64,000 nt of DNA, from assembly GCA_000004695.1 (NCBI GenBank), contig CM000153.2, forward strand, positions 4,128,001 through 4,192,000. Direction: 5' to 3'. This document shows positions 24,139 to 42,846 of the stretch, piece after piece. The DNA comes from Dictyostelium discoideum (lineage: Eukaryota). The position numbers and the translations under genes are program-made. Under the pieces are notes generated by a model that worked only from the letters and a program-made list of their open reading frames with translations, was not told where the DNA came from and made no database searches. Numbering within the stretch: the first letter of the stretch is position 1; each line of letters starts with the position of its first letter.

Positions 24139-25407
24139 ATGAAAAAACAAATATTTTTTATTATTTTACTTTTTACATTTTTATTTTTTATTAATAATAT
24201 AGAATCAAAGAATAATAGTGTACTTGGAAATTGTGAAAAGAATCAAACTGCAAAATATAAAAAGATATCATCCAAATATGGTAATGAAGAAATTAAAGAG
24301 ATTACAACCAATCAATTAAGCAAAGATCAACTTGAAAAACATGAAATGTTTATGAAGATTGCATTGGAAATAGCAATTAAAAGTAAAGTTAAATTCGTTT
24401 CCATCATTGTATCACCAGATGATCGTGTACTTTGTTCAGGTATCTTCTCAAAAGAGAATGCCATTCTTCATAGTGAATTGGTTGCCATTACAAATTGCAG
24501 TTCGTCCCATAAAATGGTAACTTTTGAAAATCATACAATCTATAGTACTGCCGAACCAGATTCATTGTCTTCTTCTGCCATCGTATGGGCACGTTTCAAA
24601 CAAGTTGTCTATGGCTCTTCAATTAAACATCTCTATTGTAATGCTTGCTTCTCAAGTTTACCAATTGATTCAACTTATATTTTCTCAAGAGGTTATGGTA
24701 TTGGAGTTGAAAATATCCAATTGGTTGCTGGTGTTTTACAAGATCAAACCGATGCAAACTTTGGTTCCTATTGTAATTCGTCAATATCTTCAGTTTATAA
24801 AACAAATCCACAATGTAAATGTAAAAATCCAAAATTATCAAAAGAAAATACCAACAACAACGATGATGGTGATGATGATAACAAAAACCATCATCGTCGT
24901 CATAGTCAAAATAATGAAATTGATGTTGATACTAAAAATGAAAGAAATCAACACCACCATGACAAAGATGATAGTATTGATAACTTTTTCGATGAAATAA
25001 AATCTGATGATGATTTTGATAAAAGAATTGAATCAGGTAAACAAGCTGAAAAGTCAAAGAATAAAGAAAAAAAGAAACATCATTCTCACCATCACTCTCA
25101 CACTAGTAAAGATGGTCGTAGTAGAACAAGTACAAGTACAAGTATTTCAGGTAATGGTCATGCAACTGCTTCTGCCTCTGCTTCTTCTTCTTCTTCTTCT
25201 ACTTCTTTCTCTCATTCTTCCTCTTCAAATGATCATCACCATAAAAAGGATAAATCAAATAAAAACAAAGACAACAAAGAAAAAGGTGATAAAAAAGATA
25301 AAAAAGATAAAAAAGAAAAGAAAGATAAGAAAAAAGATAAAAAAGATAAATCAACCTCTGTAGAAGAAGAAATCAATACCTTAAAAGTCGAAAAGAATTC
25401 AATTTAA
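24139..25407 (+). CDS. Secreted cytidine/deoxycytidylate-deaminase-like protein with degenerate zinc-binding site and a His/Ser/Lys-Asp-rich tail (422 aa, single exon).
   Basis: Seen: the signal peptide 'MKKQIFFIILLFTFLFFINNIES'. The CDA-fold block 'HSELVAITNCSS...TIYSTAEPDSLSSSAIVWARFKQVVYGS' aligns to the canonical 'HAE...PCxxC...AxxxxxIxRVVyG'. The conserved H and E are retained, but both Cys ligands are replaced (PDSLSS). The C-terminus is low complexity: 'HHSHHHSHTSK', poly-Ser, and 'KKDKKDKKEKKDKKKDKKDK'. Confidence 0.65.
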   Translation: MKKQIFFIILLFTFLFFINNIESKNNSVLGNCEKNQTAKYKKISSKYGNEEIKEITTNQLSKDQLEKHEMFMKIALEIAIKSKVKFVSIIVSPDDRVLCSGIFSKENAILHSELVAITNCSSSHKMVTFENHTIYSTAEPDSLSSSAIVWARFKQVVYGSSIKHLYCNACFSSLPIDSTYIFSRGYGIGVENIQLVAGVLQDQTDANFGSYCNSSISSVYKTNPQCKCKNPKLSKENTNNNDDGDDDNKNHHRRHSQNNEIDVDTKNERNQHHHDKDDSIDNFFDEIKSDDDFDKRIESGKQAEKSKNKEKKKHHSHHHSHTSKDGRSRTSTSTSISGNGHATASASASSSSSSTSFSHSSSSNDHHHKKDKSNKNKDNKEKGDKKDKKDKKEKKDKKKDKKDKSTSVEEEINTLKVEKNSI

Positions 25408-25622: not shown

Positions 25623-27652
25623 TTAAATATTTAATATTTTAATTGAATCAGGTATTATACCAGGTTGAATTTGATTATTAACACCTTTAAATAGATACAT
25701 TTCTTTTACAGTTGAAGGGACACTACCTTTGGTAATAGGTGGTTTAAAGCTATATATTATTAAACGTGAAACATTTGATGGAATAGTCTTTGGATGAATT
25801 ATATGAGAGAAACCATTTCCTAATTGTAATTCTTTGACAGTGTTTGGAATTGAATAAGGACTTAGAGGATATTTAATATTATAAAAGAATAAAGATTCAA
25901 CAGAGGAGGGTATGATATCAGAGGTTATAGGTTGATCGAAACCATTACCGAAATGAATTTCTTTAATACCAAATGGGATAGAACCTTGATTTAGTTGTTG
26001 TTTTACGTCGCCAATATACAAAAGTTTAAGAGAATGAGGTATGATACTTGGAGTGATTGGATGATTGAAACCACTTCTTAAATAAAGTTCACGCAAAGTA
26101 CTAGGAATACAACCAGAGAGTAATGGTTGTTTAATTTCATAGAGGTATAGTTTCTCAATTGAGTCTGGTATTATATTTGGTAGAATAAATTGATTGAAAC
26201 CATTATTTAAATGTAATTCTGTCACACCATTGGCAATACTTCCAGGTTGTAATGGTTGTTTAATATCGTACAATACAACTTTGCTAACGGTACTTGGTAT
26301 AACATTTGGCGCAATAGTATGAGAGAATCCACTACAAAAATGAACTTCTTTGACTGTCGATGGTATACTATTAGTCTTTAATGGTTGTGCAATATCATAG
26401 AAAAATAATTTTTGAATTCCTTTTGGTAAAACATGACTTTCAAATTGATGATTAAATCCATTTAAAAAGTGAATCTCTTTAATTGTTTCCGGTATTCTTA
26501 ATTCATTAAACTTTATTTTATTTGATAAACCTAATGATGAAATATCACTTGGAATTGGTTCACCATGTGTAACATAATAATTAAAATTACCACCTAATAA
26601 AAAAAAAAAAAATTATTAGTATTATTTTATTTTTTATTTTTTATTTTTTTAAATGAAAACTTACATTTTGCTAATTTATTAATTAATAAATATTGATTAT
26701 CTTTATCTTTAAATTCTTTTGATTCAATATTATAAAAATTACCAATTGATTCAGTGAAAACATCTTCTAAATCTTGATCAAAATGAATTGTATTATCAGA
26801 GAAAGGTTGAAAACGATTTGATTTTTTCTTTTCAACTAATTGATTACAAATTTCAGTATCTTTTATTATTGAAAGTAATTGTTTTTCTTTTTGTTGATCG
26901 TACATATCGAATATATCATAATTTTCTAAACAATGGTTATGTCTACTTATTACAGCATCTATAAGGTCGGAATCTTGTTGTAGTTGATTTTTAATTTTTG
27001 TATATAACTCTTCGTTGTCCGCATGGTTGGACTCCAGTATCATTGAAACGTTTGATTCTAAATCCAAAAGGACTTGATGTAATTGTTTAAACTTTTGATG
27101 AATTTTAATTAGATTCTCTTGATGGCGTGATTCAACTAAACCAAAGCAATGATCGACTGCATTCGATACCACTTTATCACTCTCTCTGTATGCCATTATA
27201 TTTGGGAGTTGATTGGCTTTAAAACTTTCTACTATATATTGACCATTCATTTTATTGATCTCTGATATCTTGTGGCCGGCGTGGTTTTCATCTATACAAA
27301 TTGGGCATACTCCACTAAGACAATCTTCACAAACTGATGTTAAGTCTAATTGATTATGTTTTAAACATTTTATATCTACATTTAAATTAAATTCATCTTG
27401 ATGTTGAAAATATTTATTATTACTACTACTAGCATTATTCGTTATATTTGTATTTTTATTATTACTATTATTATTAATATTAATATTAATATTATTATTA
27501 TTATTTTCTATATGATTGGTTTTTTGTGGTGATTGATTAAGTCTTCCTAATTTCGATTGAAATAAGGCGACTTTATTATTACTTTGATAATAATTCTGAA
27601 AAGAAGCTTTATCTTGTAAATAATTTAAATCTTGATTATTATTTGAAATCAT
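25623..27652 (-). CDS. B-box zinc-finger + coiled-coil + FNIP-repeat protein (~652 aa). join(25623..26593,26665..27652) on the minus strand.
   Basis: Seen: exon 1 carries a B-box-type motif 'CEDCLSGVCPICIDENHAGHKI' and a coiled-coil region. A GTAAGT donor sits at plus-strand 26664..26659 (phase 1), and the acceptor AG lies at 26595..26594. Exon 2 is open from 26593. It has repeated ~22-aa units 'GNGF(N/D/S)QxIxPxxIPxSVxxLxxxxIKQPLxxGSIP', the Dictyostelium FNIP repeat, ending 'IKILNI*'. The ORF track shows only a 216-aa piece because it starts at an internal TTG codon. Confidence 0.75.
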
Positions 27653-33179: not shown

Positions 33180-34133
33180 TTATTGTGGAATTTTATAAGA
33201 AACAAAAGCTTCTACTGCTTCAAATTCGGTTAAACCTAAATTATCATAAATTTTAGCGGTTTCACGATTTCTACATTCAGCACGAACCCAAAATTCTCTT
33301 TTATCAGTTCCAGGAAAAGCTGGAACATCTTTTTGAGATTGATGTTTAAAGATTGACATACGTTTTCTCATCAATTCGAAAGGAGACATTGGTACGGCCA
33401 TTTCTATTCTTTCAGGTTCCCATTCTTGCCAAGCTCCACGATATAACCAAACTTGACATTCTTTCATCCAATCTTGAGTTTTCAAACGATCGATAGCCGA
33501 TAGAATAGCTTTCAAACAAACTCTATGAGTACCATGTGGATCTGATAAATCACCAGCGGCGAAAATGATCTCTGGTTTGATTGATTCTAAAAACTGAACC
33601 ATGATTTCAATGTCTTCCTCACCCAATGGTTTCTTTTTGACAGCACCAGTTTCGTAGAATGGTAAATCCAAGAAATGAATTCTATCAGGAGCCACACCAG
33701 CATAACGGGCACCAGCACGAGCCTCAGTTTTACGTATTAACCCTTTAATTAATTGAATCTCCTTTGAATCTGGTTGACCTGGTTTCTTGGTTTTAATGAA
33801 TTCATTGACATTCTTTTCAATGGTATTCGATCTCTCCACTGATTCATTACCCAATGAAAAAAGTTTACTAAATTCACTAGCGAAATTTGCAAATCTAACA
33901 GCATCATCATCCCAAACTGCAATATTACCACTGGTTTGATATGCAACATGAACCTTATGACCTTGATCACATAAACGAATGAATGTACCACCCATACTAA
34001 TCACATCATCATCTGGATGTGGTGAAAATACAATTACTCTCTTTGAAACTGGTTTAATATTACTATCATAATCCCACATTTCATTAATAATATTAATTTG
34101 TTCAAAACTACTATTATCATGATGTTGATGTTG

Positions 34134-34198
<65 letters not shown>

Positions 34199-35021
34199 TA
34201 CTATTATCACTACTATTTGTTTTTGGTGAAGTTGGTGAAGTTGGATGATGTTGATTTGGTCTACCTCCTGGCCAACCATTAATAGTTGATTGTAAATATC
34301 TAAAAACTTTAAGATTTAAATTATGACATGGACCAAATACTTTAAGTAATGAGGATAGGTTATGGTCATGGTATTCCTCTTCCTCAAGTTTTAATATTGG
34401 TTTACCCAATTTCAATGATAACCAAATCACAGCTTTTCTAGCCAACAATGGTGACCACTTAATTGTAAGAGTTGTTCCAGTGGAATGAATAACCCATGGT
34501 TGTTTACAACGTGTAATCTCTACAGCTGCAGCCTCATCAATTATCAACTGACACTTTTGATGACGTTGAAAAATGGTTGATGGTATAGCAGGAGTGATCT
34601 CACCCTCGGTTGTCTTCTGAACTATCGATGCCTTACCCTCGGAGAAAGCCATCAATATAATTCTCTTAGAGTTAAACATTGTTGATAAACCCATTGTCAA
34701 TGCATGATGTGGAACATGTTCAGTACCAAAGAAATCACTTGCTGCATCGATTCTTGTATTTTGCTCCAAATCAACCAAACGTGTCTTTGTATTAGCCAAT
34801 GACCCCGACTCATTAAATCCAATTCTTTTTCCAATTGGAATTAACATTAAATCAATACCACCAACTTGTTCAATCTTTTCTTCATATTCTTTTAAATGTT
34901 TATCAATTTCATTCTCTGAAATTTCACCATTTAAAAAATTTATATTTTCTTTTTTAATATCAATTAATTCAAATAAATTTTCTTGCATATATCTAGTTAA
35001 AATAAAATTATGTTAATATTT

Positions 35022-35062
<41 letters not shown>

Positions 35063-35443
35063 TTTATATATATTTATTTACCTATAAAAACTTTGAATTC
35101 TATTTCTTTCAATTGGATAATATTCATCAACATTAAAAGTGATAACATTTTTAAATGAAACTTTATTTTCTTTATATAATTTAACCAATTGATCATAAAC
35201 ACCTGATGGAGTTGAACCACATGTTAAACCTAATACAAAAGGTTTTCCATTTGAATTTGAAATTTCAATAGCCTTAACAATCTCTGATGCAATGAAAACA
35301 TTAACTTGCTCTGGATCTTGATAAACAAGTGTTTCTAATTTTTCTTTACTTTTAAATTCTTCATTACATTCAAATAATCCTGTTTCTGAATTAATTTTAT
35401 TTACTCCTGAATATTGTTGTTGTTGTTGTTGTTGTGTGGACAT
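33180..35443 (-). CDS. Glucosamine-6-phosphate deaminase/isomerase (NagB) domain fused to a C-terminal LmbE/PIG-L-family (GlcNAc-deacetylase-like) domain, 724 aa. join(33180..34992,35082..35443) on the minus strand.
   Basis: Seen: exon 1 '...GKPFVLGLTCGSTPSGVYDQLVKLYKENKVSFKNVITFNVDEYY...SFY' aligns with E. coli NagB ('RPFVLGLPTGGTP..VSFKHVVTFNMDEY'). A GTAAAT donor sits at plus-strand 35081..35076 (phase 2), with the acceptor at 'ttttaactag' (AG 34994..34993). Exon 2 is 'RYMQENLFELIDIKKENINFLNG...' (NagB 'ENINLLNG'). After a poly-N linker it continues '...VIVFSPHPDDDVISMGGTFIRLCDQGHKVHVAYQTSG...FAAGDLSDPHGTHR', which has the PIG-L/LmbE signature 'HPDDD'. The poly-N(23) insert is typical of Dictyostelium. 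Confidence 0.8.
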
Positions 35444-36496: not shown

Positions 36497-38135
36497 ATGA
36501 ATAAAATTATTACATTTTTATTTGTAATATTAGTTTTAAATGTATCATTAATCAATTGTCAATATGGTACACCAACTTTTAAAATTGATAATTCACCAAC
36601 TCTCCAATTAGTTAAACAATAGTAAGTAAATATATATTTTTTTTTTTTTTTTAACACATTTAAAATATTAATATTTTTAATTTTTTTTAATTTTTTTCTT
36701 TAGTAATCAAAGTCAAATTTATTCTTTATCATCAAGTGGATATGAAAAACCAATTATTATTGCAAATTTAACAGGTACTCATTATGAAATGGGATTTGCA
36801 GCAGGTTATTTAATGGCACAAGAAGCTTATGAAAATTATAATGTTATGGTTGGAGCAGTTTTACCAAAAACTTGGGAAAAGGATGCATTTGAGAAATTCC
36901 TTGATTGGCAATGGAATGATTATTTAAGTAAACAAATTACTCAAAATTATTTAGATGAAATCCAAGGTTACTCCGATGGTGCAATAGCAAGTGGTTTCAC
37001 TCAATTAGGTAAAACCATTGAACGTGGTGTTGTCATTAGTAGTTTTCCAGGTGACCCAACCGAAAATATTGAATATTTATTAAGAAATGAATTATTAGGT
37101 GGTTTCTCTGACTATTTAATTAGAATCGATAGATTGGATGTTTTATCAAAAATTAAAGAAATCATTTCCAATCAAGAAGAGGAAGATACTACTAGATCTT
37201 CAAAAGGATTACAATGCTCACATTTCTCAACTTGGGGTGATAAAACTTTTAATGGTGATATGTTTAATGGTAGAAATTTAGATTGGTTAAATGGATCAGG
37301 TATTAGTAATAATAAATTGATTACATTCTATAATCCAGTTGGTCAATATTCACATGCCGCTATTGGATTTGCAGGTTTAATTGGTGCAATCGTTGGTATT
37401 AGTTCCAAGGGTATTTTCGTAGCTGAATCTGATAATGACTCTGTAAAGGTTACTTTTGATGGTTTTGCATGGTCAATGAGATTACGTTACATCATGGAGA
37501 ATGCAGCCAACATCGAGGAGGCAGTATCACTATGGGAGTCCACTAACAATACAATGGGCATGTGCCACAGTCTTGCAAGTGCAACTGAGGCATCAACCGC
37601 TGAGCATCCAGCATTCGCTTTGGAAACTATGAAGGGATACACCGCATTCTTCTCTGACAACGATCCAAACGAACATTACATTTACACTGATCCAAAGACC
37701 GGTGAACAAACTCAAATGGGTTACCCATTAGACAACGCAGTCTATCGTACAAATCATGGTTATGATGAAACTATTCGTCAAAATGAATGGGAGCCAGCCA
37801 TCCCAAATGGCGATTCATGGACTCGTTACATGCTCTTCTATAACACCTTTTCTTATTACACCGCATCCAACACCACAATCTCTGAACTCCAAGCCATCAA
37901 CATCACCTCTATCCTTGGTAACAAACATAGCATCCAAGATATCTACTCTTCACCAGCTCCATTCTACGATTGTACTAACGCTTGGATGGGTTACAACATC
38001 ATCTCTTCAACTTTCCATTTTGCATCAAATAAAATGTTTGTAGCTTTTGAAGAAGGTTTTGGTCAACAAAGAATTTGTGCTGCTTGTGGTACTTATGTTG
38101 AAGTTGATTTAACACCATTTTTTGGTCCATTTTAA
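36497..38135 (+). CDS. Secreted N-terminal-nucleophile (Ntn) hydrolase-like protein (~518 aa), possibly peptidase C45 / acyl-CoA:6-APA acyltransferase-like or phospholipase-B-like. join(36497..36621,36704..38135).
   Basis: Seen: the signal peptide 'MNKIITFLFVILVLNVSLINCQ'. The exon 1 donor is GTAAGT at 36622 (phase 2), and the acceptor AG lies at 36702-03. The long exon 2 contains 'SSKGLQ|CSHFSTWGDKTFNGDMFNGRNLDW', a candidate autoprocessing site that would expose a Cys nucleophile, and ends '...AACGTYVEVDLTPFFGPF*'. The family call is inference from the general pattern, so confidence is low on the subfamily. Confidence 0.55.
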
Positions 38136-38228: not shown

Positions 38229-39686
38229 TTATTTTTTAAAATGTTCATTTAAAAATTGATCATAATCTATATTTTCACCATCATCATCATCATCAAGATC
38301 AATATCATCAATATTATAAGATTTATTATTATTATTTTGTTGATGATATTGATTTTTTAATTGATCTTGATCAATAATATCTTTATTTTCTAATTTCTTT
38401 TGTTTTAATAAATCAATTTTTTCTTTCTTTTCTAATGCTTCTTTTAATTGATATTTATAAGAATCTAATAGACTATTATTAATTTCTTCTTCTTCTTCTT
38501 CCTTTTCATTATCAATTTTATCTTCAAGATCAAATTTAGTTAAATTTTGAATTTCAATTTCTTGTTTTTCAAAATTTTCTTTTAATTCTTGTTTTTCTTT
38601 TTCTCTTTGTTCTTTTTTTAGTTTTTTTTCTTCAAGAATTAATTCTTGTTTTTTCTTTTCTTTTTCAATTCTTGTATTAATTTTATTTACTCTTTCTTTA
38701 AGTTTTTCTTCTTTTCTTTTAGTTTTACCATCATTTTCAAATTCTAAATGATCAATTGCAATTTTATTTGGAAATTCTATATAACGATTAGTGATTTTAA
38801 CAAATTGTTCAATTTGTAAATTTTGAGTTCTAATTTTTGGATCGATATCATCACCCAATAATGATTCAGCATCTTTACCAAGTGTTTTAATTGTATTTGA
38901 TAGTTTTTTACGTCTTTGAGAGAATAATTCTCTACATACAAATTCGAAATAATGATGATCTTTAACTGGTTCATCACCCAATGGTGAAATTCTTGGTTCA
39001 ATTGCAACCACTGATGCATCAACTTTTGGTGGTGGTACAAATGCGGTACCTGGTATTGAATATACTATAGAGGGTTGACACATTTGTTGTACCATAACTG
39101 ATAGACGTGAATATTCTTCTGAGCCTACTTGTGCACAGATTCTATCAGATAACTCCTTTTGAAACATTAAATACATTGGTACTCTACCAAATTCATATAG
39201 TCCTTGACGTGGAGCAATTTGACGAATCCATTTCAACATTAAATGTGTACCAACGTTGAATGGAAGATTACCAATGATTTTCACTTTGGATTTGTCTTTC
39301 CAATTTGTGGTTTCTGCACCTGCATCTCTTAATAGTTTAGCTTCATCAACATCCATCATGTTGGCCATAATTAATGACATTCTACCTCCACTTGATTCTT
39401 CTAACATTTTCAATGCTGGATAAAATCTTGGATCCATCTCTACTGCTATTACTTTTTTCGCTCCACTTGTTAATAAACTTCTTGTTAATCCACCTGGTCC
39501 TGCACCAACTTCTATAACTGTACAATCATCAAATCCACCTGATTTCTTACAAATTTTATCCGTTATATTTTTATCAATTAAAAAGTTTTGTGATAATTGT
39601 TGTTTTGCACTTAATCCAAAAATTCTAATAATTTCTTGAATTTTTGGCATTGGTGGTAATGATGTTGTTAAATTTTTAATTGTCAT
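38229..39686 (-). CDS. tfb1m: Mitochondrial rRNA adenine N6-dimethyltransferase / transcription factor B1 (KsgA-Dim1 family) with a long Glu/Lys coiled-coil C-terminal extension (485 aa, single exon).
   Basis: Seen: 'LPPMPKIQEIIRIFGLSAKQQLSQNFLIDKNITDKICKK...VIEVGAGPGGLTRSLL...IIGNLPFNVGTHLMLKW...FVPPPKVDASVV'. Established knowledge: the SAM-binding 'EVGxGxGxLT' and the 'NLPF/Y' motifs identify the KsgA/Dim1 fold, and the N-terminal block matches the human TFB1M motif 'AAKQLSQNFLLDLRLTDKIV' in the TFB1M branch. Confidence 0.85.
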   Translation of the reverse strand: MTIKNLTTSLPPMPKIQEIIRIFGLSAKQQLSQNFLIDKNITDKICKKSGGFDDCTVIEVGAGPGGLTRSLLTSGAKKVIAVEMDPRFYPALKMLEESSGGRMSLIMANMMDVDEAKLLRDAGAETTNWKDKSKVKIIGNLPFNVGTHLMLKWIRQIAPRQGLYEFGRVPMYLMFQKELSDRICAQVGSEEYSRLSVMVQQMCQPSIVYSIPGTAFVPPPKVDASVVAIEPRISPLGDEPVKDHHYFEFVCRELFSQRRKKLSNTIKTLGKDAESLLGDDIDPKIRTQNLQIEQFVKITNRYIEFPNKIAIDHLEFENDGKTKRKEEKLKERVNKINTRIEKEKKKQELILEEKKLKKEQREKEKQELKENFEKQEIEIQNLTKFDLEDKIDNEKEEEEEEINNSLLDSYKYQLKEALEKKEKIDLLKQKKLENKDIIDQDQLKNQYHQQNNNNKSYNIDDIDLDDDDDGENIDYDQFLNEHFKK

Positions 39687-40228: not shown

Positions 40229-41290
40229 AGATATTACCAACAATAACAACAACAAATGAAATTGAAAGTATACCATGTATTGATTTTTCAATATTAAAAA
40301 ATAATGGTAATGATAATAAAAATGCTTAAGAATTTATTTCAAAAGAAATTAAAAAAGCTTTTATAGAATATGGCTTCTTTTATATTTTAAATCACAGTAT
40401 TGAACAATCTTTAATTGATAGATTAATGGAATTATCAAAAAAGTTTTTTTCATTACCATTAGATGTTAAAATGAAATATAAAATTAATATTGGTGAAAGT
40501 GAATCTAATTTAGGTTATTTTTCACTTGGTCAACATGGAACAGATTATAAAGAGGGTACCTTTTTTAAATTTAGAGACTAATAATAATAATAAAAAAAAT
40601 AATAATACATCAAAAAGAATATCAGAATTATATCCAACAAAAGAAGAAGAAGAGCTATATGATATTGTAGGATTTAAAGATACTTGTGAAACTTTTATGA
40701 AATGTTTAAATCGATTTAGTATTGAGTTGATGGGATTGATCACAATAAATTTAAATTTACCAGAAGATTATTTTAATGATTTATATTTAAATCATCCACA
40801 TTTTAATTTAGGTTTATTAAAATATATGTCATTTGATGATGATGGTAATGGTAATGGTAAAATTACTAAATTTGGTAATGAACCTCATTGTGATTGGGGT
40901 TTATTTACATTACTTTATCAAGATGATGTTGGTGGTTTACAAGCTTTATCAAAATCAACTGGTCATTGGATAAATGTCAAACCAATTAGTGGTTCACTCA
41001 TTTTCAATATTGGTAATGTGATGGAAATCATTACAAGAGGTTATTACATTTCAATGTTTCATCAAGTAATTTATAATACATCTGGTAGAGATCGTTATTC
41101 ATTCCCATTCTTTTTTAATCCTCAACTTGGTAAACCAATAGTTCCAATAAATAATTTAGAAACAACAACGACAACAACAATAACAAAAATTGGAAATTAT
41201 ATAAAAGATCCAAATATATTAAATTTCAAAGGAACTTATAATGATTATCATAACATTGAAATGAATAAATTGTTTAAAAAACAAAATTAA
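40229..41290 (+). pseudogene. 2OG-Fe(II) oxygenase gene copy A, pseudogene.
   Basis: Seen: it is colinear with intact copy B, but ATG is replaced ('aaaaagatatt' versus 'aaaaATGatat'). There is an in-frame TAA ('NDNKNA*', 'gcttaagaattt' versus B 'ggtaaagaaatt'). A +1 frameshift and stop occur at 'ggtaccttttttaaatttagagactaataa' versus B 'ggtacctttttagatttagagactaat'. The 3' two-thirds (ORF 40526..41290) remains open and retains HxD...H ('HCDWGLFTLL','FHQV'). Confidence 0.75.
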
Positions 41291-41820
41291 TAAAAAAAAA
41301 AAAAAAAAGTTAACTAACAATTAATTGCCATTTTTGGTGTTTTGTTTTTTTTTTTTTTTTTTTTTTTTGAAAAACTTAAAATTTAACATTTTAAAAAAAA
41401 TTAGAAAAAAGGGGTAAAGATTTCTTATTTTATAAAAGAAATTGCGACTGTAAACAAAAAATTACTTAATATCTGAAAAAATTTATCTGACCAACCTTTT
41501 TAAAAAATTTTTTTTAAACAGCGATTTTTTTTTTTTTTTAAAACATCTTGTCCAATAGCGATTATTTTTGATATTTAAAAAACAAATTTCGTTAATATTA
41601 ATTTTAAAAGGAAATATTAAATATTAATTTTAAATATTTAATACAAATGTAAAACTAATATATAAATTCTAATTTATTGTTTTTAATTTTTTAATTTTTT
41701 GTTTATTAAATAATTATTAATTTTTTTATTTCCATTCACACAAACAATAATTTTTCATTTTTTTAATTGTGTTAATTGAATACTCTTGTGTGGAAAAAAA
41801 AAAAAAAAAAAAAAAAAAAA

Positions 41821-42846
41821 ATGATATCACCACCAACAACAACAAATGAAATAGAAAGTATACCATGTATTGATTTTTCAATATTAAAAAATAATGCCAA
41901 TGATAATATAAATGGTAAAGAAATTATTTCAAAAGAAATTAAAAAAGCTTGTATAGAATATGGCTTCTTTTATATTTTAAATCACAGTATTGAACAATCT
42001 TTAATTGATAGATTAATGGAATTATCAAAAAAGTTTTTTTCATTACCATTAGATGTTAAAATGAAATATAAAATTAATATTGGTGAAAGTGAATCTAATT
42101 TAGGTTATTTTTCAATTGACCGACATTATACAGATTATAAAGAGGGTACCTTTTTAGATTTAGAGACTAATATTAATAATGCATCAAATGGAATATCAGA
42201 ATTATATCCAACAAAAGAAGAAGAAGAGCTATATGATATTGTAGGATTTAAAGATACTTGTGAAACTTTTATGAAATGTTTAAAACAATTTAGTATTGAG
42301 TTGATGGGATTGATCGCAATAAGTTTAAATTTACCAGAAGATTATTTTAATGATTTGTATTTACAAAATCCAAATTTTATTTTAGGTTTATTAAAATATA
42401 TGTCATTCGATGATGACGGTAGTGATGATAAAACCACCAAATTTGGTAATGAATCTCATTGTGATTGGAGTTTATTTACATTACTTTATCAAGATGATGT
42501 TGGTGGTTTACAAGCTTTATCAAAATCAACTGGTAATTGGATAAATGTCAAACCAATTAGTGGTTCATTCATTTTCAATATTGGAGATATGTTGGAAATC
42601 ATTACAAAAGGTTATTATACTTCAATGTTTCATCAAGTAATTTATAATACATCTGGTAGAGATCGTTATTCATTCCCATTCTTTTTTAATCCTCAACTTG
42701 ATAAACAACTAATTCCGATAAACAATTTAGAAACAACAACAACATCCAAAATTGGAAATTTTGTAAAGGATCCAAATATATTAAATTTCAAAGGAACTTA
42801 TAATGATTATCATATTATTCAAATGGAAAAATCATTTAATAAATAA
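41821..42846 (+). CDS. 2-oxoglutarate/Fe(II)-dependent dioxygenase (flavonol-synthase/IPNS-like), intact copy B, 341 aa, single exon.
   Basis: Seen: ATG at 41821 (the ORF track starts earlier at an alternative codon inside poly-A). Established knowledge: the 2OG-FeII_Oxy facial triad and 2OG-binding residues are present: 'HCDWSLFTLL' (H-x-D), 'FHQVIYN' (second H) and 'RDRYSFPFF' (R-x-S). The N-terminal DIOX_N-like block is 'IPCIDFSIL...EIKKACIEYGFFYILNHSI'. Confidence 0.85.
   Translation: MISPPTTTNEIESIPCIDFSILKNNANDNINGKEIISKEIKKACIEYGFFYILNHSIEQSLIDRLMELSKKFFSLPLDVKMKYKINIGESESNLGYFSIDRHYTDYKEGTFLDLETNINNASNGISELYPTKEEEELYDIVGFKDTCETFMKCLKQFSIELMGLIAISLNLPEDYFNDLYLQNPNFILGLLKYMSFDDDGSDDKTTKFGNESHCDWSLFTLLYQDDVGGLQALSKSTGNWINVKPISGSFIFNIGDMLEIITKGYYTSMFHQVIYNTSGRDRYSFPFFFNPQLDKQLIPINNLETTTTSKIGNFVKDPNILNFKGTYNDYHIIQMEKSFNK

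Follow-up and report, generated by a model that had tools for sequence, protein, structure and literature searches.

Gene structure and domain architecture

We analyzed a 64,000-nucleotide (nt) window of the Dictyostelium discoideum genome (GenBank assembly GCA_000004695.1, contig CM000153.2, positions 4,128,001 to 4,192,000 of the forward strand; coordinates below are those of the window). In this window, a two-exon gene on the minus strand encodes a protein of 724 amino acids (aa) in which an N-terminal module of the glucosamine-6-phosphate (GlcN-6-P) deaminase (NagB) fold is fused to a C-terminal module of the LmbE/PIG-L deacetylase fold (Table 1). Two minus-strand open reading frames (ORFs) of 602 aa (33180..34988) and 121 aa (35078..35443) underlie the gene. 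They are joined across an almost purely A+T intron, with its GT at 35081 and its AG ending at 34993, to yield a spliced coding sequence of 2175 nt and exactly the 724-aa product that had been predicted. The splice junction reads "...SFYRYMQENLF..." ("...IQSFYRYMQENLF...") and aligns without gaps to "LQSYVRFMNEHLF" of bacterial homologs, the D. firmibasis ortholog has an intron of 106 nt at the same position and in the same phase, and the GC content is 0.3 to 0.4 in coding sequence versus 0.1 to 0.15 in intergenic sequence; on these grounds, the two-exon gene model is sound. No stop codon lies between the NagB and LmbE halves, and the ORF runs through both, so that there is one gene and not two.

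The exact 724-aa sequence was not found in a collection of 15 billion proteins. The nearest entry, from another D. discoideum isolate (KAM9958011.1; 706 aa, 97% identity), differs by a 14-residue gap in the poly-N run, a shorter poly-Q run, and about six substitutions, and both homopolymer tracts (poly-N, 34134-34196; poly-Q, 35414-35434) thus vary in length among isolates. Exon 1 holds the N-terminal poly-Q run and the NagB blocks PFVLGLTCGSTP and TFNVDEY, the latter including Asp106, the counterpart of Escherichia coli Asp72. Together with VSFKNVITFNVDEY, ENINFLNG, and HPDDD (residues 446 to 450), the first of these blocks makes up the motifs on which the original prediction of a NagB-LmbE fusion had been based, all of which we located in the protein.

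Both domain assignments were borne out by profile and structure searches. Pfam Glucosamine_iso matches residues 43 to 265 (E = 4e-14; 53.4 bits versus a gathering threshold of 27) and Pfam PIG-L matches residues 441 to 620 (E = 3e-18; 67.1 bits versus 28.2), while the NagA-type Amidohydro family gave no match to the protein in Pfam or NCBIfam. In sequence searches of the Protein Data Bank (PDB), the N-terminal half recovered NagB enzymes (3hn6; E = 2e-44) and the C-terminal half weakly matched archaeal diacetylchitobiose deacetylases (Dac) and Bacillus cereus BC1534. An AlphaFold2 model built for P0001, the isolate protein with 97% identity, and supplied with 87 homologs reached a predicted local distance difference test score (pLDDT) of 84 and a predicted template modeling score of 0.79 and comprises a NagB fold, a helical connector predicted with confidence (about residues 277 to 353 in P0001 numbering), a disordered poly-N stretch, and an LmbE-type fold. 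Foldseek searches with its N-terminal domain retrieved NagB structures at target-normalized TM-scores of 0.86 to 0.96, and those with its C-terminal domain retrieved the LmbE-family diacetylchitobiose deacetylase 8bgo (E = 7e-10) and BC1534 (2ixd). No solved structure contains both a NagB and an LmbE domain.

The two enzymatic modules had been described as separated by a poly-N/Q linker. A disordered insert does lie between them, and it is accompanied by a conserved domain: residues 281 to 365 form a helical connector of about 85 residues (pLDDT > 90), with the motifs KPILKL and TI(T/N)GWPGG(K/R)P, that is conserved from bacteria to amoebae and has the lowest ratio of nonsynonymous to synonymous substitution rates (dN/dS) in the protein (0.017 between D. 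discoideum and D. firmibasis, the pair used for all dN/dS values given here). We therefore reject the notion that the middle region is a mere linker. The insert at residues 366 to 429 is absent from the bacterial homologs, evolves fast (dN/dS, 0.35), and differs in length between the 724-aa and 706-aa isolate proteins; its poly-N tract is specific to Dictyostelium.

Table 1. Features of the NagB-LmbE gene and of neighboring genes in the window
Feature	Coordinates	Strand	Description
Whole gene	33180..35443	minus	ATG at 35443, stop codon 33182..33180; spliced product of 724 aa
Exon 1	35082..35443	minus	362 nt; codons 1-120 + 2 nt
Intron	34993..35081	minus	89 nt, GTAAAT...CTAG, phase 2
Exon 2	33180..34992	minus	1813 nt with stop codon
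NagB-fold (Glucosamine_iso) domain	34515..35326	minus	Residues ~40-280, spans intron; Pfam, PDB sequence search, Foldseek
Altered catalytic loop IGKRIGFNE	34809..34835	minus	Residues 174-182; Arg177 = 34824..34826
Helical middle (connector) domain	34260..34514	minus	Residues 281-365; alignment, AlphaFold2 model, dN/dS
Disordered low-complexity insert	34068..34259	minus	Residues 366-429; poly-N run 387-407 = 34134..34196
LmbE/PIG-L-fold deacetylase domain	33183..34067	minus	Residues 430-724; Pfam, PDB searches, conservation
HPDDD motif	34005..34019	minus	Residues 446-450; alignment to Dac HPDD
HGTH motif	33525..33536	minus	Residues 607-610; aligns with BC1534 HPDH
AAT-like neighbor	36789..38135	plus	448-aa ORF; weak AAT (acyl-CoA:6-aminopenicillanic acid [6-APA] acyltransferase/peptidase C45-like) domain; divergent, upstream
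rRNA adenine dimethylase (RrnaAD) neighbor	38229..39686	minus	Window neighbor
B-box/FNIP-repeat ORFs	25623..27652	minus	Window neighbors

Membership in the long-form NagB family

The protein is the D. discoideum copy of a known family, the long-form NagB proteins, whose members combine a sugar-phosphate aldose-ketose isomerase/deaminase module of the NagB fold with a metal-dependent de-N-acetylase module of the LmbE/PIG-L type, the two being joined by a small helical connector. It matches the NCBIfam model of this family, NF002557 ("glucosamine-6-phosphate deaminase-like protein"; also PRK02122), with 885 bits against a cutoff of 384, and the match is full length, extending to position 651 of the 653 in the profile. 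With the other members it shares, besides the three-part architecture, the LmbE catalytic motifs and the lid motif AASDFF, and it is about 50% identical to the bacterial ones. The dictyostelid proteins depart from them in having Arg in place of the catalytic histidine (E. coli His143), beside a 2-residue deletion, and in their poly-N insert and intron.

Compared with short NagB and its eukaryotic GNPDA counterparts (E. coli, 1dea; Bacillus subtilis, 2bkv; human GNPDA1, 1ne7), the N-terminal module has the same fold (root mean square deviation, 1.1 to 2 Å), 32 to 36% identity, and the same Asp72, Glu148, Lys208, and G-S/G-T phosphate loop. It differs in having Arg for His143, Asp for Arg172, and one extra lid residue, and the D. 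discoideum protein adds a conserved C-terminal extension of about 440 residues. The C-terminal module has the Rossmann-like fold and the HPDD...HxxH motifs of the LmbE superfamily (Dac, 8bgo/3we7; BC1534, 2ixd; MshB; BshB; PIG-L), but the solved members are each only about 20% identical to it. It is fused to a NagB module or encoded next to one and, at about 295 residues, is enlarged by extra helices and a conserved C-terminal segment (WLYRGAWQEW, FKHQSQKD, REFWxRAExRN).

Phyletic distribution and bacterial origin

Protein searches recovered orthologs from all of the dictyostelids sampled (D. firmibasis, D. purpureum, Cavenderia, Tieghemostelium, Heterostelium, and Acytostelium) and further ones from Polysphondylium violaceum, D. 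citrinum, Physarum polycephalum, and the protosteloid Clastostelium recurvatum, the last two as full-length transcripts. The next-ranked matches are thousands of bacterial proteins of 630 to 665 aa with 49 to 53% identity, most of them from Bacteroidota and Planctomycetota. At least 597 matches, again mostly in these two phyla, came from a scan of GTDB species genomes, which added Balneolaceae, Ignavibacteria, and Gemmatimonadales. The statement in the original prediction that the architecture is mainly bacterial, typified by Bacteroidetes, therefore agrees with the distribution found here.

The alignment of the D. discoideum protein to the bacterial ones is collinear over the NagB, connector, and LmbE regions, with about 50% identity over the whole length. 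In a neighbor-joining tree of 87 sequences (23 eukaryote-like and 64 bacterial), the eukaryote-like sequences form a single clade (bootstrap support, 100%), and Clastostelium groups with Dictyostelia (81%). These observations support the view that the whole fused gene entered an amoebozoan ancestor from bacteria; thereafter, as judged from the sequences, it was vertically inherited and gained an intron, AT-rich codons, and the poly-N insert. Thus, of the two origins that had been envisaged, horizontal acquisition is supported, and the collinear homology of the three conserved parts excludes convergent fusion in amoebae.

Neither the architecture, its presence in D. discoideum, nor its lateral origin is new, contrary to what the original prediction implied, and all three are already covered by the literature and curated family databases. 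The nagB section of Andersson et al. (2006; PMC1484493) describes a "long version" of nagB, distinguished by a conserved C-terminal extension, in Entamoeba, Mastigamoeba, D. discoideum (the present gene itself being within that data set), ciliates, Trichomonas, and several eubacteria, including Bacteroidetes and Rhodopirellula, and infers its transfer from a prokaryote to an amoebozoan ancestor. According to the same section, D. discoideum additionally carries a short nagB that came from prokaryotes separately. The extension is not named there as LmbE/PIG-L, a name that current Pfam and NCBIfam supply. We also encountered the family in Heterolobosea sp. BB2 (P0174), Barthelona sp. (P0235), Kipferlia bialata (P0246), and the streptophyte alga Chlorokybus atmophyticus (P0161), none of which is named in that section. 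A separate observation concerns a 790-aa member (P0021; European Nucleotide Archive contig of 3247 bp) in which the connector and the beginning of the LmbE domain are duplicated internally (columns 395-500 of alignment A1); this is probably an assembly artifact or a recent tandem duplication, and the sequence was excluded from the larger alignment.

A constant LmbE module and an altered NagB module

Conservation within the protein is highest in the LmbE domain, whose dN/dS is 0.042. The predicted set of metal-binding and base residues, His446, Asp448, Asp449, His607, and His610, is present, and the HPDD and HxxH motifs are invariant across the 87 aligned sequences, so the ligand conservation for which the original prediction had proposed a check is complete. 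Established knowledge of MshB and PIG-L allows roles to be assigned by homology, with His446 and Asp449 as putative metal ligands, Asp448 as the putative general base, and His610 as the putative third metal ligand; the same roles are taken from a review of the superfamily (PMC4101496). From the invariant motifs and the low dN/dS, we favor a catalytic LmbE module. Many Arg/Lys residues of the C-terminal domain (in KKKP, HGTHR, YRGAW, FKHQSQKD, and REFWxRAExRN) are likewise invariant.

The NagB module presents a different picture, which the original prediction had overlooked. In an alignment of 120 homologs with E. coli, B. subtilis, and human NagB, the D. discoideum protein reads "IGK--RIGFNE" where "GIGRTGHIGFNE" is expected, so that Arg177 occupies the position of E. 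coli His143, beside a 2-residue deletion, and Glu182 (the equivalent of Glu148) is kept. His143 is assigned to the opening of the sugar ring. Two papers call it the catalytic histidine of the E. coli enzyme (PMC4008608, PMC3009595). The loop takes the form "LPIGK--RIGFNE" in 10 of 10 dictyostelid sequences; Clastostelium has Gln at the His143 position without the deletion, and the canonical "GIGRTGHIGFNEPGS" is retained in the bacterial long forms, Physarum, and related environmental transcripts. Of the positions with at least 97% conservation outside the dictyostelids, 14 differ in every dictyostelid, and the NagB domain holds 12 of them, 5 of which (170, 173, 176, 177, and 183) lie within or directly beside the catalytic loop. 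The ratio of NagB to LmbE p-distances is 2.17 within Dictyostelia versus 1.21 among bacteria.

Against this stand the retained residues of the module, namely, Asp106 (= Asp72, the general base), Glu182, Lys241 (= Lys208), and the G-S-T phosphate loop. The NagB domain has a dN/dS of 0.075 and is thus under strong purifying selection and clearly maintained, and the proposition that it is decaying in Dictyostelium is rejected as stated. Because the equivalents of the Asp72 base, Glu148, and Lys208 are kept under such selection, the deaminase step in dictyostelids has probably been slowed or altered rather than discarded. As far as the searchable literature shows, such remodeling of the catalytic loop in a domain under purifying selection has not been described.

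A similar asymmetry between the modules extends across the family. When 1.84 billion cluster representatives were searched with the C-terminal domain, 229 clusters matched at E < 1e-30, and 36 full-length representatives (at least 560 aa; within P0153-P0254) listed among the best 150 were included in a motif census. Of the 36, 32 retain the full LmbE H-D-D-H set and 35 its H-D-D part; the NagB Asp72/His143/Glu148 triad is intact in 17, altered in 17, and N-terminally incomplete in 2. The fraction with an altered triad (17 of the 34 complete sequences) is rough, because divergent lineages are over-represented after clustering at 50% identity and the most divergent sequences are aligned only approximately. 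Altered triads occur in bacteria (e.g., a protein annotated as "PIG-L family deacetylase" from an Omnitrophota metagenome-assembled genome and one of 663 aa that is common in metagenomes of gut Bacteroidales) and in protists (Barthelona and Kipferlia). The asymmetry is clear from these sequences, with the deacetylase module as the constant one, and the pairing of a constant LmbE domain with an often degenerate NagB domain appears not to have been described in the searchable literature. One representative (P0255) has the reverse pattern, its NagB triad being intact and its LmbE motif lost.

Gene neighborhoods of the bacterial long forms

To obtain contextual information, we assembled 89 loci, nine from preannotated contigs and 80 from GTDB species genomes, clustered the ORFs within 6 kb of the long-form gene, and named representatives of the recurrent clusters with Pfam. 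The most frequent neighbors encode a MurQ-like SIS etherase (16 loci), SusC (14), AnmK and GHL10 (13 each), and a DeoR regulator (12, at a median distance of 200 bp upstream), followed by GSCFA and a NagZ-type glycoside hydrolase of family 3 (GH3) (9 each), Exo_endo_phos (8), a ROK kinase and a major facilitator superfamily (MFS) permease (7 each), SusD types (two clusters, with 7 and 6 loci), DUF5009 (6), an SSF transporter (5), GH20 (4), and N-acetylglucosamine (GlcNAc) 2-epimerase (3). The neighborhood was uninformative in 50 of the 89 loci.

A cluster with the order DeoR-longNagB-MurQ-GHL10-AnmK-GH3-MFS is present in several Flavobacteriaceae (loci L055, L061, L064, L067, and L080). In peptidoglycan recycling, an AmpG-type permease imports the muropeptide, NagZ (GH3) frees GlcNAc, AnmK makes N-acetylmuramic acid 6-phosphate (MurNAc-6-P), and MurQ turns this into GlcNAc 6-phosphate (GlcNAc-6-P). 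The cluster lacks only the NagA and NagB steps, for which the long-form gene is the sole candidate in it. A Fulvivirga locus with the order SusC-SusD-ROK kinase-longNagB-GH20 supports the same argument for GlcNAc-containing glycans. No NagA-like ORF was found among the recurrent neighbor clusters or in a motif scan of the 775 neighboring ORFs of the 89 loci. Furthermore, on a 1.6-kb metagenomic contig (L010), the protein is split, with an ORF for NagB plus the connector (2-250) that stops 7 bp before an LmbE ORF (257-1081; P0231, 274 aa, of the same subfamily), an arrangement that points to a functional link between the two parts.

Some recurrent neighbors do not obviously fit an amino-sugar pathway. 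An Exo_endo_phos gene (about 255 aa) directly adjoins the long-form gene in its 8 loci, which belong to Bacteroidota of different families (e.g., L002 11984-12769, L007 10137-10913, L011 9211-9969, and L014 12048-12815), and the GSCFA gene lies upstream in divergent orientation in its 9 loci. GHL10, a DUF187-type glycoside-hydrolase-like protein, recurs in both Phycisphaerae and Bacteroidota (e.g., L003 5907-7991, L006 2550-4613, and L005 10757-12340).

Surroundings of the D. discoideum gene

As expected for a eukaryote, the Dictyostelium locus has no amino-sugar gene cluster. The order of the flanking genes (RrnaAD, AAT-like, and B-box/FNIP) (Table 1) is syntenic with D. firmibasis, where the same AAT-like neighbor is found (L009 3172-4864). 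Elsewhere in the window, two adjoining plus-strand ORFs (40526-41290 and 41776-42846) each encode a 2-oxoglutarate (2OG)-Fe(II) oxygenase domain, the second also having DIOX_N, and resemble either tandem genes or exons of paralogs; a 422-aa plus-strand ORF (24139-25407) contains a cytidine/deoxycytidylate deaminase zinc-binding domain (E = 3.5e-11).

Proposed function and competing explanations

The explanation that we favor, and regard as reasonably probable, is that D. discoideum carries a transferred long-form NagB protein whose LmbE and NagB modules act in consecutive steps, with the NagB module altered in dictyostelids. The metal site formed by His446, Asp449, and His610, with Asp448 as the base, would hydrolyze the N-acetyl group of GlcNAc-6-P, which is the reaction of the unrelated amidohydrolase NagA; the adjacent NagB module would then bind the GlcN-6-P product, which canonical family members would convert to fructose 6-phosphate and ammonia. 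By this route, chitin or digested bacterial cell walls would supply glycolysis with GlcNAc and MurNAc. Gene context suggests the assignment of the LmbE domain as a NagA-analogous GlcNAc-6-P deacetylase, because MurQ, AnmK, GH3, ROK, and GH20 genes lie nearby and no NagA-like gene occurs within 6 kb. The analogy, which we propose on gene context only, is one of function: the bacterial long-form genes occupy the place expected of a nagA-nagB pair and the LmbE domain would act where NagA does in the pathway, after MurQ/NagK and before NagB, but it has no sequence or fold kinship with NagA. Of the two consecutive steps that had been predicted for the fusion, the pairing as such is thus supported by the bacterial gene context, but deamination of GlcN-6-P is uncertain in the D. 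discoideum protein, where His143 is Arg. The regulatory pairing that the original prediction gave as an alternative is a possible reading.

Several observations weigh against this proposal. Canonical NagA genes lie elsewhere in the genomes of Flavobacterium johnsoniae and Bacteroides thetaiotaomicron, whose Fjoh_4557 and BT_0258 we take to be long-form members, and the LmbE module is therefore not needed there as a substitute. The uninformative neighborhoods noted above count on the same side, as do the substrates of the closest LmbE relatives with solved structures, which are unphosphorylated diacetylchitobiose or GlcNAc and not GlcNAc-6-P. The protein narrowly misses the TIGR00502 nagB equivalog (223.7 bits versus a cutoff of 236.9). 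The position of Arg172, an active-site phosphate ligand in E. coli NagB, is Asp (AASDFF) in every long-form sequence, and the NagB module may accordingly bind a different ligand; a literature search on the role of E. coli Arg172 gave no matches. The replacement of His143 by Arg may further mean that the second step is absent from the D. discoideum protein. In the searchable literature, we found biochemical data on no long-form member, and the searches for an LmbE-type GlcNAc-6-P deacetylase and for a D. discoideum NagA returned nothing relevant or useful. The LmbE review (PMC4101496) does not mention a NagB-LmbE fusion, and for the NagB of the F. johnsoniae ChiUL, expression failed and deletion had no phenotype (PMC5127042).

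The most probable of the competing explanations concerns the second step. The dictyostelid NagB domain might serve as a sugar-phosphate-binding, regulatory, or oligomerization domain for a monofunctional LmbE deacetylase, with GlcN-6-P deamination left to the short NagB, whose gene is present in D. discoideum according to the nagB section of PMC1484493. We hold this to be possible and less probable than the proposal of consecutive steps. It would account for the change at His143 in all 10 dictyostelid sequences and the Gln of Clastostelium, the concentration of dictyostelid-specific changes in the NagB domain, its roughly twofold-higher rate of divergence relative to LmbE, and the altered triads of divergent family members that keep the LmbE motif. 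Conversely, the other active-site residues and the phosphate loop are kept, the dN/dS bespeaks strong constraint, and the loss of His143 need not abolish activity, since ring opening can also occur spontaneously. A broader version extends the idea to the family as a whole, which would be an LmbE-type GlcNAc-6-P deacetylase and a nonorthologous analog of NagA, the NagB module being an accessory that has repeatedly decayed into a noncatalytic sugar-phosphate-binding domain, with the dictyostelid protein as one such pseudodeaminase; this we put forward tentatively, as a minority possibility.

Other explanations question the substrate or the direction of the reaction. The LmbE domain could deacetylate free GlcNAc or chitobiose, as the archaeal Dac enzymes do, a muropeptide, or a conjugate of GlcNAc with lipid or inositol. 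The archaeal diacetylchitobiose deacetylases are indeed the closest solved relatives, the adjacent Exo_endo_phos and nearby GSCFA genes have unexplained roles, and the Prokaryotic Genome Annotation Pipeline labels degenerate members "PIG-L family deacetylase." We nevertheless judge a substrate of this kind unlikely, given the obligate physical or genetic tie to a sugar-6-phosphate-binding fold, the adjoining genes for MurQ, whose product is GlcNAc-6-P, and for the sugar kinases ROK and AnmK, and the invariant C-terminal Arg/Lys residues, which would fit an anionic substrate. More improbable still is a biosynthetic role, in which fructose 6-phosphate and ammonia would be converted to GlcN-6-P to supply amino sugars for a wall or spore coat, as proposed for the "glucosamine-6-phosphate isomerase" of Giardia and Entamoeba in encystation. 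Entamoeba has the long form according to the nagB section of PMC1484493, and knockdown of the single Gln6Pi gene of Entamoeba histolytica blocked the formation of cyst-like structures (PMC3581238). However, in that study an anti-human antibody detects a band of 37 kDa, which ill fits the long form and makes the report weak and uninformative on it; moreover, the anabolic direction needs no deacetylase module, the bacterial neighborhoods are catabolic or recycling in character, and the Dictyostelium NagB loop is degenerate. An artifact, be it misjoined genes, bacterial contamination, or convergent fusion, is so improbable as to be negligible: no evidence in its support was found, and misjoining and contamination are ruled out by the continuous ORF across both domains, the conserved spliceosomal intron, the AT-rich codon usage, and the D. 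firmibasis synteny. The full-length Physarum and Clastostelium transcripts and the three-part collinearity with the bacterial proteins, connector included, argue to the same effect.

Implications for amino-sugar metabolism

As a documented transfer of a curated family from a bacterium to a protist, the gene leaves current understanding unchanged. What the analysis adds is that the dictyostelid loop remodeling and the asymmetry between the modules lead to the hypothesis of a NagA-analogous deacetylase, which is of moderate, specialist interest. In thousands of genomes of Bacteroidota and Planctomycetota and in several protist lineages, the protein is annotated only as a deaminase, and the most conserved and indispensable part of this deaminase-annotated family is an LmbE deacetylase. 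If the family-wide version of the hypothesis is true, the annotation "glucosamine-6-phosphate deaminase/isomerase" misnames its main activity. If the LmbE domain is a GlcNAc-6-P deacetylase, reconstructions of chitin, mucin, and peptidoglycan-recycling pathways that use nagA as a marker gene would need correction, and an enzyme that channels the amino sugars of prey cell walls into glycolysis would have been identified for bacterivorous amoebae.

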